From Bacteriovoracia bacterium (GTDB taxonomy: Bacteria > Bdellovibrionota > UBA1018 > JBFWNL01), in assembly GCA_050251055.1 (NCBI GenBank), contig JBFWNL010000002.1, positions 192,001-256,000 of the forward strand: a stretch of 64,000 nucleotides of DNA, read 5' to 3'. Below the pieces are notes generated by a model. The model was not told the DNA's origin, made no database searches, and was given only the letters and a program-made list of their open reading frames with translations. The translations under genes and the position numbers were made by a program. This document shows positions 1-7,277 of the stretch, in pieces. Every line of letters begins with the position of its first letter. Positions within the stretch are counted from its first letter, which is position 1.

Positions 1-95
1 GTTCTCGAAGCGAGAGAAACGCGCGGTAAGTCGTCAAAATACTAGAAGACTCTGTATTGAACTCCGCCTCGGTTAGTGGAGGCACTGAAACAACC

Positions 96-317
96 CTAAG
101 TCCTTTCCCTAAGGAGATCGGCCACACTCATGTTCAATCCTTCTGCAATTGCCAGTAAGGTAGAATAGCGGGGATCTTTTTTTCCCTTTTCGATATCGGA
201 CAGATTCCCCTTTGAGAGATCCATCTCATAAGCGAGTTTCTCTAAGGTAATCCCACGCTTGCGTCGCAATAAAGAGATTCTTTCGCCTAGCTTTAGCAGG
301 GCCGGTCTGGATTTCAC
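96..317 (-). CDS. XRE-family HTH transcriptional regulator (controller/repressor-like)
   Basis: LGERISLLRRKRGITLEKLA...SKGNLSDIEKGKKDP is a typical HTH_3 pattern; GTG start 7 nt after TAGCCT. Confidence 0.85.
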   Translation of the reverse strand: MKSRPALLKLGERISLLRRKRGITLEKLAYEMDLSKGNLSDIEKGKKDPRYSTLLAIAEGLNMSVADLLRERT

Positions 318-350
318 TCATTCAAGGCTACGCATCGAGCTTGCAAAGTA

Positions 351-383
351 GTTCGCTATAGCGAACAATTCGTTATAGCGAAC
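351..383. promoter_or_regulatory. Two tandem 16-bp palindromic operators between the XRE gene and the divergent ORF
   Basis: GTTCGCTATAGCGAAC (351-366, perfect palindrome) and ATTCGTTATAGCGAAC (368-383). Confidence 0.7.
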
Positions 384-445
384 TCAGGCTCTATGGCGTA
401 TTCCAGCCATTTGAATTCCGGACTCTCATAAAGAGGAGGCACGAA

Positions 446-958
446 TTGTTAGGTCTAATTGGGACTCTTGCGATACTTGGCGGAGCAGCGCTTCTTTTCT
501 TCTCAGCAATACTCTTGTTATTCAAAAGAGAAAGCCGTTATCCAAAACGCTTAGCATTGCTTGGTTTCGTTACATTGCTCGCTGGGGCCATCTCAGTAGG
601 TCTAGAAAAAGACACTCGTCAGCCAAAGGCGCTAAGCATTGAGGAGTGGAAGCAACATCGAGAGTACATCGAATCGTTTTCTAAGCGCGTATTCGTAAGC
701 TTAACCGCTCATGAGATGTACGAAAAGGCGAATGAGTACCTATCAGACCCTTACATCAAATCATGCAGGTACGGTGGGTGCGCAGAGTTTCGTCAAATGC
801 TACGTGAAATCATGGATGCAACAGAAGACGGCAGAATTTCTCCAAAAGAAGTCGGTGCAAATAAAGGCTTGGGGAAATTCGTAAAAGACGCGCTAGATAA
901 AGGAGAGAAAGACATAAACAAAAGCATTAAACCTGCGCCCCGTCCTGATGGGAAATAG
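446..958 (+). CDS. Hypothetical membrane protein (two N-terminal TM helices)
   Basis: GAGGAGG RBS before TTG; two hydrophobic segments, then a soluble domain with CRYGGC. Confidence 0.65.
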   Translation: MLGLIGTLAILGGAALLFFSAILLLFKRESRYPKRLALLGFVTLLAGAISVGLEKDTRQPKALSIEEWKQHREYIESFSKRVFVSLTAHEMYEKANEYLSDPYIKSCRYGGCAEFRQMLREIMDATEDGRISPKEVGANKGLGKFVKDALDKGEKDINKSIKPAPRPDGK

Positions 959-1247
959 ATTCTTTGTAATCTACAGCATACTTCACCAAATCAGTAAAAC
1001 TCTCAATCAGAGGCAAGCGATCACCTACATCAAATTCGATAGCCTTGCGCTTGGGGTAAATGTATCCCAGCAGCTGGACCAATAGATTCGCCTGCTCCTT
1101 CGGTGACAATTGAGGCAATAAATCACAAATCCTCGAAACCGGTTCAACTCCCCCTGCTCGCAATGCCTCTACCAGGAGATGTGTTTTTTTATTAGGAACC
1201 CCTTTTCTACGTCCTCCGGTTTTAGGGAGCCCCGCTGGCCTGCTCAT
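927..1247 (-). CDS. Phage terminase small subunit-like protein
   Basis: N-terminal KTGGRRKGVPNKKT motif resembling TerS-like/DUF5681-type phage proteins; ~100 aa, helical. Confidence 0.55.
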   Translation of the reverse strand: MSRPAGLPKTGGRRKGVPNKKTHLLVEALRAGGVEPVSRICDLLPQLSPKEQANLLVQLLGYIYPKRKAIEFDVGDRLPLIESFTDLVKYAVDYKESISHQDGAQV

Positions 1248-1359
1248 TTCCTCTATTCCCTTCTACTTTAGATACGGGCATCCAATCGGACATTGCATCG
1301 CGGCCAAGTAGCAATTCCCACACCTCCAACCCACCTAAAGGTCCGCCACGCACCCAGAT

Positions 1360-1408
1360 ATTTATAAACTATATTAATTTATTATATAAATTAATATAGT
1401 TTATAAAT
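1360..1408. repeat. Perfect 23-bp AT-rich inverted repeat with 3-nt loop
   Basis: ATTTATAAACTATATTAATTTAT-TAT-ATAAATTAATATAGTTTATAAAT. Confidence 0.95.
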
Positions 1409-1573
1409 CTAATCATCCACAAACTCAACGCGTTGTTCTTGCACGATGATTTCAATATATAAAAGTGGATCAAAACCATTTAGTATAATATTATACGATA
1501 TGCTACATAAAATTGAAATTTATGTCGTATATTGGTACAAGTGGTTCCCGGTGGCTGCATATATGGAAGATGC

Positions 1574-2008
1574 ATGCTTCAGGGGGACAGTTTGGAAGAA
1601 GATCCTAACCACGATTTTTCGGCCTTCGAGAAGGCATGTCAAAGCCATCCCGAAACCGTGGTTGTTCCCGATGATACGGAAAGCGACGCAAGGAGACATT
1701 TCCGCATCAACAACTCAGACGACCTACTAGCCTTTATTGGGCGAGGCGGTTTGAAGGACCATAAATTCGTCAAACGAGACACTTGGCGTTTTGGAAAGGA
1801 AGCTTATGGTGTCGAAGTCAATTTGGATATTTATGACTTCTGGGAAGGGGAAAAGTTTGGTTACCTGTCCCTTGGACGCCATCCGGAGAACAGCATGTGG
1901 GTAATCAAATCCTTTCACGAAAATACAAACCCGAACCCAAGAGCCAAACCTGTTTTCAAGGTCACAAAGAGGATTGTTTTTAAAAAAGGCGTACCCCATG
2001 AAGAATAG
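1574..2008 (+). CDS. MqsR/RelE-fold toxin-like protein (start could be 1532)
   Basis: Size, DIYDF...GYLSL...WVIKSFH C-terminal strands like MqsR; overlaps a Zn-ribbon-HTH gene. Confidence 0.55.
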   Translation: MLQGDSLEEDPNHDFSAFEKACQSHPETVVVPDDTESDARRHFRINNSDDLLAFIGRGGLKDHKFVKRDTWRFGKEAYGVEVNLDIYDFWEGEKFGYLSLGRHPENSMWVIKSFHENTNPNPRAKPVFKVTKRIVFKKGVPHEE

Positions 2009-2576
2009 TTGCCAATTTTGCGGCTCAGCCGAAACAGAAATTCTATCCGTCGAGAAAGAAGGCGCGCTTCCTGATAATACTGCTTTTAAATATCACGCTC
2101 AGGTGTTGCGCTGTTCTAATTGCCAATTAAAAGTCCCAGTCAAGCAATCAAGCGACGCGGAATATGATCAAGCTTACGTGCAAGCACAAGCTGAGAGTGT
2201 TGAAAAAATAAGCGAAAGACTGTCCGAAGTAGGATTAACAATGGCATCTATTGAGCGCAGTTTCGGGATCCCTCAGCGCACGATTATGAGATGGAAATCC
2301 AAAGGTTGCTCCGCCGCTGGCTTTTCTTTGATGCACCTTCTTAATGTGTACCCCTGGCTGACTAAAATCGCTGATCATAACTACGACCCTCGATTTGCTT
2401 CTAAAGAAGTACTTCGACAAGCTGCGGAAATATACAATGGACCGAGCTCTATTGAGGTCGCGGAGCATCAATTACTCGGATCACCAAGCATTAGCCTGAA
2501 CGAAAGGCATCTCCGACTTGTACCTAAGAGTAATTCTTCAGAAGATCCGCAAATATACCAAGTGGGGAGCGGATGA
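1998..2576 (+). CDS. MqsA-like antitoxin (Zn ribbon + HTH) with C-terminal extension
   Basis: CQFC...CSNC zinc ribbon followed by HTH (LTMASIERSFGIPQRTIMRW) and a ~50-aa tail. Confidence 0.7.
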   Translation: MKNSCQFCGSAETEILSVEKEGALPDNTAFKYHAQVLRCSNCQLKVPVKQSSDAEYDQAYVQAQAESVEKISERLSEVGLTMASIERSFGIPQRTIMRWKSKGCSAAGFSLMHLLNVYPWLTKIADHNYDPRFASKEVLRQAAEIYNGPSSIEVAEHQLLGSPSISLNERHLRLVPKSNSSEDPQIYQVGSG

Positions 2577-3010
2577 AGGTCACAAACATAATATTCTGCG
2601 ACGATATCCGGCGAGAGATCAATAACAAGCACACTCTCGTTGGCTGTTATTCAGATCGTATTCTCATTACACCACGCAACGGGGATATGAAATGGCCGGT
2701 GGCTGTAAAACTTGGGATCTTTATTACTCTCATACGCGAGTCAGATGACCCCAAGTTCAACACCTTTGCTTTAGAGTTTTTCGACTCAGAAGAATCTCTA
2801 GCAAAAGTCGAAGGAAATCTAGACGGCTTAGACCAGGGTCGCCCCATCAACATTATGTTTGTCTTACCGCTGGTATTTAAACGTCCAGGTCCTTTAAGTG
2901 GGAAGTTTGATTTTTCGGAGAAAGACGGAGTTACTATTACACTAAAGCCCGAACTTAACTTCCGACTCGAAATCGCGAAACCCGCTCAACAGCTAAATCC
3001 AACAGTATAA
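2573..3010 (+). CDS. DUF6941-like beta-sandwich protein
   Basis: IFCDDIRREINNKHTLVG N-terminus and F..PG motif; ATGA overlap with the antitoxin. Confidence 0.6.
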   Translation: MKVTNIIFCDDIRREINNKHTLVGCYSDRILITPRNGDMKWPVAVKLGIFITLIRESDDPKFNTFALEFFDSEESLAKVEGNLDGLDQGRPINIMFVLPLVFKRPGPLSGKFDFSEKDGVTITLKPELNFRLEIAKPAQQLNPTV

Positions 3011-3077
3011 AGCCTTCAACCAGCCTCCTGAAACAATAGTGGAAGAAGACGAGCTCTAGAGTGAGGAATGCCCCGGT

Positions 3078-3968
3078 TTGAGTACAGACAGCACCGAAGT
3101 AGAATTCGGAGAAACACCAGAATGGAAGCAATTTGCCAGCAAGTGGACCATTCCGGACGAAATATCGCCAGACCTCTTACTGTATCATTACACAAGCACA
3201 GGGGCCGCGAATTCCATGTTTCTATCTAAGCAGTTTTGGGCAACCTACGCAAAACACTCAAATGACTCTACCGAATTTTCTCATGGAATAGATTTATTTA
3301 TCGAGGAGATTAAAGCATTTCAATTCTGCTTTGTATCGCCAAACAATAGAGACCTTATAGAAGAGCTGATAGGGTTCTTAACTGAGGAGAAAACATCTCC
3401 AAAAATTAAGCCTTTCATTTTTTGCCTTTCAGAGCTGGGCGATTTACTAAGCCAATGGCGTGGCTACACACCAAATAGCTCCGGTGTGGCGATCGGTTTT
3501 CAATGCAAAGAACTTGAATTTGATGAATTTCATACATTAAAAAAAGTGGTGTACGACGACGGGACAAAAAGACAAAGGGCCCGATCAATCATTCAAGAGT
3601 TTGACAAACTAGTTCAAGGCGAACTCGCTAAGTTCGGAAACCACATATCTCCTCCGCACGGCCGCAGTCTTTTTTTTAAGCTATTGCAGGCAATATATGT
3701 TCAAGCGGCATGCTTTAAACACGAGGCATTCAACGAAGAAAAAGAATGGAGGATTGTTATTTATTGCGCTGACAAGAGTCAAATACTTAGCCGAAATCGG
3801 GGAATCGATCTTGTTCTATACACAACATGGGATTTCAAGGCTTCAGCAGTTGCGAGTGTCGTTTGTGGCCCTAAATGCAGTTCTTCCACAAATGAAACTC
3901 TTGAATCCCTTGTAGATAAGAAACAATTTAACTTCAAAATCGCAAGATCATCGATTCCATTTCAGTAA
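3078..3968 (+). CDS. DUF2971 domain protein
   Basis: LYHYTS, ND..EF..G, FCLSE.GDLLSQWRGY, GVAIGF, FKHEAFNEEKEWR motifs. Confidence 0.85.
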   Translation: MSTDSTEVEFGETPEWKQFASKWTIPDEISPDLLLYHYTSTGAANSMFLSKQFWATYAKHSNDSTEFSHGIDLFIEEIKAFQFCFVSPNNRDLIEELIGFLTEEKTSPKIKPFIFCLSELGDLLSQWRGYTPNSSGVAIGFQCKELEFDEFHTLKKVVYDDGTKRQRARSIIQEFDKLVQGELAKFGNHISPPHGRSLFFKLLQAIYVQAACFKHEAFNEEKEWRIVIYCADKSQILSRNRGIDLVLYTTWDFKASAVASVVCGPKCSSSTNETLESLVDKKQFNFKIARSSIPFQ

Positions 3969-4016
3969 AATCACCTATCGTATGGTTTGAGCGTGCATAT
4001 CCGCACTACCAATTCA

Positions 4017-4913
4017 CTACTTCACTCCCGATGCTATCGGCTTATGTCGGACTTCAATTCCAAGTGAAAAATCTGAGAAACATCCAAAAATCTCTTCGAA
4101 TTCAGACCTATTTTGAAACAATTCCTTATAACTACGATTATGTTGATTCGCTACCCAAATGAACTTGGACTTTATATTCGAGTTCTCAGAATGCGCAATG
4201 ATTTCATCCGAGACTGCGTGTCTGTGTACCAAGTAATTTAGCTTTTCCTTAATAAACGTTTTTTCGAATGAATCGTTTGGCAAAAATTTTTCAAAATCTG
4301 AAAAAGGGAGCACAAAATCTGCCTCGCGAAATCCCTTTAAATAGTCAATGTATCTAAATCCATCTGAATCTTGGCACGTGAACTGATTAAGATACCTTAC
4401 CCAATCATCTGGAAACATGTGCTTTCCGGCAACCAGATGAAATCTATTTAGGGCACTCTCCCCCAGTATTACTCGTGGTACACGCGCAGATTTAGTCTCT
4501 AGGAGATATGCTTCTGAAAGCGCGGGACTAACCAGATAGTCATTTTTCTTAAAATAATCTCCGTAAGTTATAGCTCCACGTATCCAGACTCTAGAAAGAC
4601 TAAGGTGCGCAAGTGACCTGATTAGATCCTTCAAAAAGTGGTCGCATGCACTTTTAATGGTTATATCTGCAGCAATTATCACTGAGTCACTAATCACCGT
4701 AACTTCTGGCTTATATAGGGCACCGCTTTGGTTTGGCGTACTGAAACGAAACAGTTCCAACGCATGAATTAACTCCGATAACTTGCGTTCCTTGAGATGG
4801 TCTTTAAATCCCAGGATATCCAGGTAGGCCACAACCCGTTTTGAATATTCATGACTAACTACTTTTTGCTCTACTGACTTTTCCATACTTTCCCAGTTTC
4901 GAGGTGAAATCAC
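4017..4913 (-). CDS. Divergent class III nucleotidyl-cyclase-like protein
   Basis: YLDILGFK (Asp1), ISDS (Asp2), IRGAITYG, SPALSEAYLLE...PRVIL; GTGA overlap with the DUF4238 stop. Confidence 0.65.
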   Translation of the reverse strand: MISPRNWESMEKSVEQKVVSHEYSKRVVAYLDILGFKDHLKERKLSELIHALELFRFSTPNQSGALYKPEVTVISDSVIIAADITIKSACDHFLKDLIRSLAHLSLSRVWIRGAITYGDYFKKNDYLVSPALSEAYLLETKSARVPRVILGESALNRFHLVAGKHMFPDDWVRYLNQFTCQDSDGFRYIDYLKGFREADFVLPFSDFEKFLPNDSFEKTFIKEKLNYLVHRHAVSDEIIAHSENSNIKSKFIWVANQHNRSYKELFQNRSEFEEIFGCFSDFSLGIEVRHKPIASGVK

Positions 4914-5830
4914 TCAAATAATTGGTGATTCCTTCCATTAGGTTTTATTTGCAAAAAGTTTTTATCTCGAAAAAAAAGAAACTTACACGGAGATTTAGAG
5001 ATTTCAGCATTCAATTTTGAAACTGAATCTGCACTCAATATAGCTTTTTTTTGGCCAGGTTCAAAAGTTCCGGACAGACAGATTCTTGGACTTAGTGGAA
5101 CTATAAGTTCGTTAGACTCAGACCCAAAACCACGTCCATGCTTTATCCTCACTCGCCTTGACCAATGCACCAACACCGGCTGATCGCTTGTAATAAATTG
5201 ACCCGAAGAAGCGACGAGAATGCACCAATCACGCTTTGCCAATAATGGAGCGAGCCGGCGGGCATAGTCCAATGTCAGTGATAGAATGTAGTTCTGAGTA
5301 GTTTTGAATTTATAATGCTTAGAATTAGCAATGTCCTTAAGCTGCTCCAAATTCATCCTATTACGCTCTGGAGTATTCATTCGATCATACAAGACTTTTA
5401 GGTCCTGAGGCGTACCCTTGGCTGCAAAAGCTTGCGCCCAATCCTTAGCAGTGCGGTCGACAACCTCTGCTGCATGCTCTCTAGACAAAGGCCCCCTCAT
5501 GGCCAGAAATGCGATGAAGGTCCATAACCTAGCCAATTGCACAGGGTCCTCTGGCAGCTTCTCTTCCTGGATGATCTTTCGAAGAACTGGGGCCGCGGCT
5601 CCCTCCATAGGAGCGAGCATTTTCGTTTCAATTCCAAACTCGTCATCGATACCCTCTGATGCGTCTAGACGGTAAAAATCACGAATATGCCCTACGTTAG
5701 AGACCGAAGTCTTAAAAGATGTCTTCTTTTCCTTGCTAAAAACCTGAATTATACGGCTATCCTTCTCAGTATCTGTGAAGTTAATCAGATAGCACTCGGG
5801 CACATAGTGATGCTTTCGGGGGACAGCCAT
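4910..5830 (-). CDS. DUF4238 domain protein
   Basis: HHYVPECYLINF, FITSDQPV, PLSPRICL motifs; RBS before ATG 5830. Confidence 0.85.
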   Translation of the reverse strand: MAVPRKHHYVPECYLINFTDTEKDSRIIQVFSKEKKTSFKTSVSNVGHIRDFYRLDASEGIDDEFGIETKMLAPMEGAAAPVLRKIIQEEKLPEDPVQLARLWTFIAFLAMRGPLSREHAAEVVDRTAKDWAQAFAAKGTPQDLKVLYDRMNTPERNRMNLEQLKDIANSKHYKFKTTQNYILSLTLDYARRLAPLLAKRDWCILVASSGQFITSDQPVLVHWSRRVRIKHGRGFGSESNELIVPLSPRICLSGTFEPGQKKAILSADSVSKLNAEISKSPCKFLFFRDKNFLQIKPNGRNHQLFE

Positions 5831-5906
5831 GTTGTTCCTTATCCTACGCATTCGAGCCTATGTCTTGAGCGTTCGACTTAGGCCACTCAATTAATAGGAA
5901 GGTCAG

Positions 5907-6134
5907 ATGACTCATGTAATCAAAATAGGGACGATTATAACTTACGGTCCGAGCTCAAATGCAAAAACCCAAAAAACCGGCCATGTTACTGACGTATGGC
6001 AGCGTGGAGACGAGATTCTAATAACAGTAAAGATCAACAGCATGCCCATAGAGGAATCAAAATCCGGTTACCCAGAAAACTCTCACTCCACCTATACGGA
6101 CATCTTTGTAGAAACCCCCGCAGGGAAAAACTAA
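5907..6134 (+). CDS. Small hypothetical beta-rich protein
   Basis: AGGAAGG RBS, 75-aa ORF in a gap. Confidence 0.5.
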   Translation: MTHVIKIGTIITYGPSSNAKTQKTGHVTDVWQRGDEILITVKINSMPIEESKSGYPENSHSTYTDIFVETPAGKN

Positions 6135-6294
6135 CTAAAGCACAGCAGTCACTCTGGGGAAGCGCTGGGGAATCTAGAACCTAAAAACACCCCAAAATAA
6201 CCAATAACAACCAAGGATCCAGGCCCACCGATTTCCGCTGTGTTTTGTTTATTTTCAGTAACTTAAGTCCCATGCCTAAGTCCTGATTGGTTTA

Positions 6295-6350
6295 CTCGAA
6301 AGCGTGTGTGGGGAAACCCACCGTGAGTTCGAATCTCACTCTCTCCGCCA
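6295..6350 (+). pseudogene. 3' half of tRNA-Ser(CGA) = attR core
   Basis: Anticodon loop CTCGAAA, GCGTG, long variable arm GTGGG-GAAA-CCCAC, T arm GTGAG-TTCGAAT-CTCAC, TCTCTCC-G-CCA; no D arm or 5' acceptor strand upstream. Confidence 0.9.
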
Positions 6351-6506
6351 TCACTTTTCCTTTTTCCCGTTTTAAAAAAGACGAAGACTGGCAGGGGGAC
6401 GCGCTTCCATGCGCTCGACCCCTCAGCGCCTTCCTGGCCCGGGGACGCCCCCCGCCAGTCTTCGTCTTTTTTAAAACGGGAAAAAGGAAAAGTGATGGCG
6501 GAGAGA
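6340..6506. repeat. Perfect 53-bp inverted repeat (6340-6392 / 6454-6506) that includes the tRNA 3' end
   Basis: TCTCTCCGCCATCACTTTTCC...GAAGACTGGC and its exact reverse complement, 61-nt spacer. Confidence 0.95.
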
Positions 6507-6529
6507 TTTATGGTGAGGAGGGCAGGATG

Positions 6530-6678
6530 CCCGACTTCCTTGGAGATGTCCCGGAGCGCTGGAAGCGCGGAGGGAAATCGAACGACCGCACCTGAGCTAG
6601 ATTAAGTGATCCAGCCACCCGACTTCCTTAGAGATGTTGCGGAGGGCGGGAAGCCCGGAGCAAAATCGAACTGACCGG
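6530..6678. repeat. Two imperfect ~60-bp direct repeats with internal hairpin
   Basis: CCCGACTTCCTTrGAGATGT..CGGAG..GGAAG..GGAG..AAATCGAAC.GACCG at 6530 and 6618. Confidence 0.8.
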
Positions 6679-6686
6679 CGATCACC

Positions 6687-7277
6687 CTAGAAACTATTCG
6701 AAGGATCCTTAAGAAACTCAATCTCCTCCGCCGTGCTCACGCGGCCGAGGATCGAGTTGCGATGCGGGAAGTGCCCGAACCGCTTGATGATGTCGTGATG
6801 CTTCACCGCGAACCGTTGGTTATCGAGCATGTACTCCCGAAACTCCGCCGGCGTATCCTGCACTAGCCGGTCAAACTCCACCAGCGCACGCTCTTGAATG
6901 ATCAAGTCTTCCGCGTGTTCCAGCGGCAGCAAGAAAAACTGTCGCTCTGACCAGTGCATCTTGCGATCCATCCCTTGCGCGAGTCCCTTCAAGCAAAGCG
7001 CGCGTGCCTGCGCATCGAACGCAAACGCGCGCGGCTTGCCCCGGAAAATATGACGGGGAAATTGATCCAACACGAGGATCAAGGAAACGAACCCCTCCGG
7101 GGTGCTCTCCCAATCCGCGAGCTTCCCCGCAGCGGCGGCCTCTAACGTCGGCAGAAACTCGTCGCGGACCTTTTCGTCAATGCCCGCCGGACGCCGCCAC
7201 CAAAGGTCGCGGTTTTTCAAAGGCGAAGCCACGAGGTCTTCTCCGAACCAAAACTCATGTACGCGCTGGAAATTCAT
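6687..7277 (-). CDS. DUF924 family protein
   Basis: FWFG, LDQFPRHIFR, FFLLPLEHAE, RFGHFPHRN motifs. Confidence 0.9.
   Translation of the reverse strand: MNFQRVHEFWFGEDLVASPLKNRDLWWRRPAGIDEKVRDEFLPTLEAAAAGKLADWESTPEGFVSLILVLDQFPRHIFRGKPRAFAFDAQARALCLKGLAQGMDRKMHWSERQFFLLPLEHAEDLIIQERALVEFDRLVQDTPAEFREYMLDNQRFAVKHHDIIKRFGHFPHRNSILGRVSTAEEIEFLKDPSNSF

Follow-up and report, generated by a model that had tools for sequence, protein, structure and literature searches.

In this study we analysed a 64,000-nucleotide stretch of DNA from Bacteriovoracia bacterium (positions 192,001 to 256,000 of contig JBFWNL010000002.1, assembly GCA_050251055.1), called the window below, and focused on two neighbouring minus-strand genes near its beginning. 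One encodes a DUF4238 protein and the other a protein with the predicted fold of class III nucleotidyl cyclases, here called the cyclase-fold protein. The two are probably separate anti-phage genes that act individually and became neighbours as cargo of a small horizontally acquired island. We give this reading more credence than doubt because the pairing is not conserved, both families occur alone or with varied neighbours, and a DUF4238 protein has been found to act singly. The cyclase-fold gene itself is a candidate anti-phage defence gene, judging from its fold, conservation, domain fusions and genomic context. A first-pass annotation, made from the sequence alone, had proposed instead that the two genes form a new two-gene defence system.

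Organization of the two genes

The genes and their possible starts are as follows (nt, nucleotides; aa, amino acids; ORF, open reading frame).

4910..5851, minus strand: DUF4238 gene as the longest ORF, 313 aa from the first ATG at 5851, with a TGA stop at 4912-4910
ATG at 5830, minus strand: likely start of the DUF4238 gene, 306 aa in the database gene call (P0200)
4017..4913, minus strand: cyclase-fold gene, an ORF of 298 aa counted from the GTG at 4913
ATG at 4886, minus strand: likelier start of the cyclase-fold gene, 289 aa in the database gene call (P0001)
4910..4913, minus strand: GTGA overlap of the DUF4238 stop with the candidate GTG start (the plus strand reads TCAC), present only if the GTG is used

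The pair had been described as translationally coupled through this GTGA. The overlap is real, while the coupling is uncertain: the ATG at 4886 is more likely than the GTG at 4913 to be the start of the cyclase-fold gene, which leaves a 23-nt spacer between the two genes, and most homologues of the protein have short N-termini. With the start uncertain between the GTG overlap and the ATG with its spacer, the two genes are tightly linked, yet true translational coupling is not certain. For the DUF4238 gene, AAGGA can be read in the sequence 5-9 nt upstream of the ATG at 5830, and the end coordinate of 5830 given by the first-pass annotation agrees with the database gene call. The two genes probably lie in one transcript. 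A promoter and terminator scan of 3800-6300 yielded no usable signal, the sites being fewer than in shuffled sequences (2 promoter sites vs 4.9 in shuffles; 1 terminator vs 2.1); one promoter-like site was located at 5064-5037, within the DUF4238 gene. When sequencing runs were searched for this stretch, no RNA run was found, and two DNA runs from one study contain it, one of which may be its source.

DUF4238 genes mostly occur singly

The DUF4238 protein matches Pfam family PF14022 almost from end to end (profile positions 1-280 of 281; E 3.5e-41; 141.9 bits vs a cut-off of 27), which bears out the identity assigned to it earlier. It also matches the PADLOC model DUF4238-Pers (PDLC03000; E 6.8e-31; positions 1-294 of 309) and phrog_29785 (E 2.6e-28). 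PF14022 is its sole Pfam match, and no nucleotide-binding domain was recognised in the Pfam scan. The residues H8, R112, D216, P218 and N274, which are invariant across the family, are all kept, and the protein is 12-43% identical to the aligned relatives. By these matches it is an ordinary though divergent member of the known DUF4238 family. A word-based homologue search gave only 4 proteins, and the relatives were taken from genome searches instead. Its structure model (madcdb0be8486) has a mean predicted local distance difference test score (pLDDT) of 89 and found no convincing solved relative (best VIA-align Z 4.1, over one helical stretch; best Foldseek E 0.36). The only clear BFVD match of the model is an uncharacterised protein of Stenotrophomonas phage Smp131 (E 1.6e-9).

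Rousset et al. 2022 (PMC9122126) tested a DUF4238 gene from a P2-encoded hotspot and found that it made E. coli strongly resistant to phage T7 on its own; the P4 hotspots named in the first-pass annotation have to be corrected accordingly. Most full-length DUF4238 genes (46 of 61) have no same-strand neighbour within 30 nt, while the window DUF4238 gene shares its strand with the next gene. The tight neighbours of the remaining 15 are mutually unrelated.

The pairing is rare and scattered

To follow the pair across genomes we collected 202 cyclase-fold loci (80 from species genomes, 80 from metagenomes and 42 from viral contigs in IMG/VR), representing 190 distinct proteins and 144 clusters at 70% identity. 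A DUF4238 hidden Markov model (HMM), built iteratively from genome matches, was used on all of them. It replaced, together with Pfam, a phmmer search of the window DUF4238 protein against the ORFs of the first 80 loci, which returned nothing. It turned out that DUF4238 adjoins the cyclase-fold gene in only 2 of the 202 loci (2 of 144 clusters), called L145 and L097 here. Pfam agrees, with 2 DUF4238 matches among 142 neighbours in genome and metagenome loci. The pairing is thus not unique to the window, as the recurrence check suggested with the first-pass annotation has revealed, while it is rare and scattered.

L145 has the gene order of the window, with the DUF4238 gene followed by the cyclase-fold gene on one strand after an 80-nt gap. 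The two genes and a small reverse-strand ORF (893-1147) make up a low-GC (guanine-cytosine) islet of about 2.2 kilobases (kb) in a backbone of 60-70% GC. In L097 the order is reversed: the cyclase-fold gene precedes, by 110 nt, the gene for an 818-aa protein whose N-terminal part is a DUF4238 domain. This protein carries a Cys-rich CPCG...CC motif, and the two genes lie in a same-strand gene row (L097:21-8359) in which unannotated 1300-aa and 279-aa proteins precede the cyclase-fold gene. In a FastTree tree of 186 rows (rows of <200 or >400 aa and identical duplicates dropped), the cyclase-fold proteins of the window, L145 and L097 are not sisters and form no clade. The close kin of the L097 protein, in L111 and L032, both have long flanks without DUF4238.

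The search from the DUF4238 side gave the same picture. In the window's phylum, 18 DUF4238 loci taken from 17 further genomes gave no cyclase-fold ORF in their flanks of 1.5-3 kb. The same holds for another 59 DUF4238 loci, made up of 11 on viral contigs, 30 in a second phylum (27 genomes) and 18 in a third (17 genomes). Nor is there a cyclase-fold gene beside L212, which at 43% identity is the closest DUF4238 relative with context. Of 401 genomes sampled from the window's phylum, 18 contain DUF4238, 26 contain the cyclase-fold family and 2 contain both, where chance would give about 1.2. These two are the window's own genome and G387, whose copies lie 855 kb apart. Among 50 genomes picked for a cyclase-fold gene (accounting for 50 of the 80 genome loci), 3 have a DUF4238 match, none of them at the locus. 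The predicted complex of the two proteins scored 0.07 vs a mark of 0.32, and nothing is drawn from it.

Since the pairing is rare and scattered and shows no genome-level association, the claim that the two genes are one system is unsupported by recurrence. We nevertheless weighed the possibility of a real two-gene defence system, perhaps facultative and kept in few lineages, in which a signal made by the cyclase-fold protein switches on the DUF4238 effector, or in which the roles are reversed, with DUF4238 sensing and the cyclase-fold protein executing. Several observations favour it or weigh against two independent anti-phage genes. The window genes lie on one strand, separated by at most 23 nt or overlapping by 4 nt, which fits a functional operon, and same-strand adjacency is found in two independent, unrelated lineages, with the same order in L145, whose compact islet looks like a two-gene cassette. 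The 2 DUF4238 matches in 142 neighbours compare with about 0.2 expected in a random draw of defence genes, by a crude estimate that assumes DUF4238 to make up about 0.3% of defence genes. Sampling near the window proteins is thin (31% identity to the nearest cyclase-fold relative with context) and might have missed a subclade in which the pair is conserved, and the flanks of the DUF4238 loci extend over 1.5-3 kb only. The anti-phage role of the cyclase-fold family is itself putative, making the gene a candidate, and the loss of its transition-state Asn/Arg pair (see below) could mean that the family lacks classical catalysis.

On the other side stand the 2 of 202 cyclase-fold loci and 0 of 77 DUF4238 loci, the 2 shared genomes, the scatter of the three paired cyclase-fold proteins over the tree, the DUF4238 protein with PF14022 alone and no recognised nucleotide-binding domain, and its action as a single gene in the one case tested (PMC9122126). 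We therefore regard a two-gene system as unlikely, and keep it as an alternative mainly because of the L145 islet and because DUF4238 neighbours exceed the rough expectation. Two separate genes remain the preferred reading.

Fold and active site of the cyclase-fold protein

At the sequence level the cyclase-fold protein is nearly without matches. It has no Pfam match at E<=0.1 and no NCBIfam match; among the PADLOC models it matches PDC-M33C alone, and weakly (E 0.022), and it matches phrog_23933 at E 1.6e-21. A phmmer search of PDB sequences gave one chance-level match (E 2.3), while all 7 weak matches in a family-profile search of the same sequences (E 0.09-1.7) were adenylate cyclases, aligned at the first Asp motif. 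The six-frame search of the window's genome with PF00211 matched 5 genes, and the cyclase-fold gene was not among them. The nearest named ESM Atlas clusters are Guanylate_cyc (0.87) and DUF2652 (0.86), which serve as leads only.

The structure tells more. An AlphaFold model from 33 sequences reached a pLDDT of 84, and its best VIA-align match is 3et6_B (Z 14.4; root-mean-square deviation 3.0; 156 residues). Class III cyclases and cyclase-like proteins take nearly all of the 25 top places in VIA-align, while GGDEF domains score a Z of about 9. The top Foldseek matches are adenylyl and guanylyl cyclases (E 1.5e-5). In the model, the class III nucleotidyl-cyclase fold is thus confirmed by fold, not by sequence, and the structure prediction that had been suggested as a check comes out in favour of the class III cyclase-like label. 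The aligned cyclase range covers residues 9-187 and is followed by a helical extension (about 190-257), whose modelled helices 206-231 and 236-257 fall outside that range and correspond to the extra C-terminal helical region noticed before.

The motifs YLDILGF, ISDS and PALSEAYLLE are all present in the protein. Conservation was counted on 195 single-domain members, after two tandem forms, one fragment and one low-complexity match had been omitted from 199. Both metal-binding Asp residues are kept, as had been claimed (D23 in 193 and D67 in 194). Strongly conserved as well are S66 (190), R103 (195), G104 (193), E130 (194), P137 (191) and R138 (195), together with K241 (184) and W244 (182) in the C-terminal extension. 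The hhalign comparison with 12 class III domains from related genomes was weak (E 0.0074; probability 5%). In the profile-profile alignment D23 and D67 coincide with the metal-binding Asp pair of class III cyclases, the strand-4 Arg-Gly of the family is in register with theirs, and S124 and L128 fall on the transition-state Asn and Arg. The reported loss of the N-x-x-x-R motif therefore holds for the window protein, and the two positions are variable in the family: position 124 (S in the window) is V in 75, I in 53, N in 43 and S in 9 of the 195 members, and position 128 (L in the window) is E in 61, L in 27, T in 25 and K in 19. The Asn/Arg transition-state pair is missing across the whole family, not only in the window protein.

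Size, variants and neighbours of the cyclase-fold family

An exhaustive HMMER search found 3239 representatives of the family (50% identity clusters) at E<=0.001, of which 356 reach E<=1e-10. Every source names the homologues "hypothetical protein", the nearest 30 ESM Atlas clusters are all unnamed, and PADLOC v2.0.0, its candidate models included, gave no match at E<=0.001 for any of 100 members. We found no account of the family or of a DUF4238-cyclase pair in the literature, supplementary tables lying outside that search.

Three members differ from the single-domain form.

P0052, 475 aa: tandem duplication of the cyclase-fold domain, the first copy without the second Asp motif and the Arg-Gly
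P0072, 531 aa: tandem duplication of the cyclase-fold domain, the second copy without both Asp motifs
P0065, 420 aa: cyclase-fold member with an N-terminal response-regulator receiver domain

Pseudo-heterodimeric class III cyclases are likewise built from an intact and a degenerate copy. The tandem forms and the receiver fusion argue for a real, dimeric and regulated enzyme.

For the genomic context, Pfam was run on the 142 operon-like neighbours from the genome and metagenome loci, with 37 neighbours from viral loci left out. These neighbours match 93 Pfam families, with HsdM (13) and HsdS (12) on top, followed by Peptidase_S8 and ResIII (3 each) and by AbiH, Mrr_cat, DUF1156 and DUF4238 (2 each); OLD-type ATPases, an AAA_13 ATPase, HNH, RhuM and DUF499 were also found. 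With our own HMMs, a subunit of a type I restriction-modification (R-M) system was detected in 29 of the 202 loci, at least 2 kinds of subunit in 23, and 16 loci (12 clusters) have same-strand type I subunits on either side of the cyclase-fold gene. The defence role of the family is proposed because of this nesting and the nearby AbiH, OLD, AAA_13 and HNH genes, and because the window's island also carries DUF2971/PDC-S31 and MqsA-like genes. The family is large, unnamed in the domain and defence databases searched and associated with defence islands, which makes it an uncatalogued defence candidate. The defence role suggested by the first-pass annotation is accordingly retained in part, since each gene resembles a defence gene carried by a foreign island, while their action as one system is not borne out.

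The neighbours bear on the two-gene alternative as well. In L005, L008 and L014 the cyclase-fold gene (6004-6864 in each; 286 aa) is followed after 27-31 nt by a different gene each time, encoding a DUF6988 protein, a Guanylate_cyc-domain protein and an AAA_13 ATPase, respectively. This could be an exchangeable-partner pattern, readable as one signal maker with exchangeable effectors and in that sense favouring a two-gene system, or simply a hotspot. The varied neighbours have no common sensor domain in Pfam, which speaks against such signalling.

Another explanation suggested by the context is that the cyclase-fold protein guards or assists R-M enzymes, as PrrC does, being silent in the type I complex and freed when a phage inhibits restriction, in which case the window copy would be an orphan and its adjacency to DUF4238 incidental. 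The 16 nested loci and the 29 with a subunit in their flanks fit this idea, and a preprint gives PrrC as its example of a gene that hardly occurs outside type I R-M systems (Payne et al., 10.1101/2024.01.29.577857). However, no type I subunit lies in the flanks of 173 of the 202 loci, many of which are on short contigs, and no Hsd gene was found among the scanned ORFs of the window's island. In addition, 140 loci have flanks of 1 kb or more to either side, and in 36 of these no ORF of the same strand lies within 150 nt; with a limit of 40 nt the number rises to 78. We regard this explanation as the least probable of those considered.

It is also conceivable that the cyclase-fold protein serves mobile elements in an addiction, regulatory or anti-defence function and that its presence on islands reflects mobility, not defence. 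Plasmid records with a homologue number 71, each homologue being annotated as hypothetical, and 42 viral contigs of IMG/VR carry one as well; PHROG also lists the family, and the member with a receiver domain resembles ordinary signalling enzymes. Set against this, tblastn with the window query found no match in 50,697 isolated phage genomes, and chromosomal nesting in type I R-M systems with AbiH, OLD and Mrr neighbours is the usual signature of defence genes. A purely mobile-element role is therefore improbable, and a separate defence gene remains the preferred reading for the cyclase-fold gene.

Besides, one genome of the window's phylum has three cyclase-fold matches (G181:C1:1926893-1929969 and 2091723-2092229), two of which lie 2 kb apart, one of these having an in-frame TGA.

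The island around the two genes

The pair is located on a low-GC island, for which the following features were found.

1..6500 of the window: the part inside the window of a low-GC island of about 8.5 kb, defined by GC and by GC at third codon positions (GC3), beginning about 2 kb before the window (G000:C2 ~190000)
G000:C2 ~190239-191402 (L003:18239-19402), minus strand: primase-like gene at the left end of the island (phrog_10514, E 1.3e-14; weak RepB_primase)
On the island: helix-turn-helix (HTH) regulator
1532-2008, plus strand: 158-aa ORF overlapping the next ORF from upstream, no family match
1974-2576, plus strand: MqsA-like gene, 200 aa (weak match to the MqsA-family antitoxin TIGR03830, E 7.3e-5, below cut-off)
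3078..3968, plus strand: DUF2971 gene (Pfam E 2.7e-12; PADLOC candidate PDC-S31, E 6.3e-11; phrog_1762, E 1.8e-30)
6295..6350, plus strand: 3' fragment of tRNA-Ser(CGA), 56 nt, identical to the 3' part of an intact gene on another contig

The GC content is 39-49% in the island vs 54-62% in most of the flanking sequence, and the GC3 is 37-50% in island genes vs 66-70% in backbone genes. By this composition the island is foreign and horizontally acquired. The tRNA-Ser(CGA) fragment at its right edge is probably the remnant of an attachment site; ARAGORN reported no whole tRNA there, and neither Rfam nor ARAGORN reported an RNA gene in the region 6295-6671. An inverted repeat with 59-nt arms (6340-6398 and 6448-6506; 98% complementary) follows, the final 11 bases of the tRNA end being part of its left arm, and after it come two 54-nt direct repeats (6530-6583 and 6618-6671; 85% alike).

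The ORFs at 1532-2008 and 1974-2576 may be a toxin-antitoxin pair. The DUF2971/PDC-S31 gene would be a third defence candidate on the island; it is convergent with the pair and not part of it. Neither an integrase nor Hsd genes were found among the island ORFs scanned. Likewise, the 10 island ORFs scanned with Pfam gave no match to a cyclic nucleoside monophosphate (cNMP)-binding or TIR domain, in line with the earlier remark that no Pycsar-type effector is visible.

Proposed mechanism and significance

The cyclase-fold protein would work as a head-to-tail dimer, in which D23, D67 and R103 of one subunit may hold the metal ions and the triphosphate of a nucleoside triphosphate (NTP), and the other subunit may complete the site. 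Other residues would stand in for the classical Asn/Arg pair, with the invariant E130 and R138 as candidates, and the C-terminal helical extension with the conserved K241 and W244 might serve as a sensor or regulator. Upon infection, which we suppose to be the trigger, the enzyme would convert an NTP into a cyclic or other nucleotide product. This would either deprive the phage of nucleotides or send a signal to a target whose gene is not adjacent. A bolder version, in which the family are new and widespread anti-phage nucleotide enzymes with a rebuilt half-site, whose non-canonical product activates DUF4238 here and in L145 and L097, seems to us very unlikely.

DUF4238 is a validated anti-phage gene without a known mechanism or a solved fold, which would make any true partner valuable. 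The partner proposed for it is probably a mere neighbour, and a wrong annotation as a two-gene system is thereby avoided. The cyclase-fold family is of interest in itself, with thousands of members, a kept metal site, replaced transition-state residues and repeated nesting in R-M systems. If it protects, a stand-alone cyclase-fold enzyme would be added to bacterial immunity, and the question would be raised which nucleotide chemistry such an enzyme performs without an adjacent effector. If its product did activate DUF4238, this would give a first handle on how DUF4238 is switched, and an example of cyclase-effector signalling without a recognisable cNMP-binding domain.

Comparison with known systems

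Pycsar consists of the pyrimidine cyclase PycC and a cNMP-sensing effector, as outlined in PMC11224242. The window shares with it a cyclase-fold protein in an anti-phage context, and the fold matches PycC structures (8jsz, Z 11.7; 7r65, Z 11.2; 8jsf, Z 10.9), while canonical cyclases score higher. It differs in that no Pycsar model of PADLOC matches at E<=0.1 and that DUF4238 and DUF2971 genes, instead of a cNMP-binding, transmembrane or TIR effector, are adjacent.

In their 2024 preprint on "guilt by embedding", Payne et al. (10.1101/2024.01.29.577857) take genes embedded in type I R-M, BREX and DISARM systems as candidates for defence. The cyclase-fold family resembles such R-M-embedded genes in its PrrC-like placement at the 16 nested loci, whereas the window copy lies outside any R-M operon.

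Rst_DUF4238, the PADLOC system DUF4238-Pers, is similar to the window DUF4238 gene in the full-length PF14022 domain, the PADLOC model match, the invariant residues and the location on a mobile foreign island. It sits in a P2-like prophage of E. coli, whereas the window gene belongs to a small island that also carries a primase-like gene and a fragment of tRNA-Ser. It acted as a single gene, while the window gene is directly trailed by a gene on the same strand.

Finally, the cyclase-fold protein shares with class III cyclases (PF00211; 3et6, 1ybt and 1wc1) the catalytic fold (Z 12-14 over about 150 residues), with both metal Asp and the strand-4 Arg-Gly in register, and its tandem forms mirror the pseudo-heterodimers. 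In contrast to them, the window protein has no PF00211 match and the transition-state Asn/Arg is unconserved in its family, which adds the invariant R138 and E130 and a C-terminal helical extension carrying K241 and W244.

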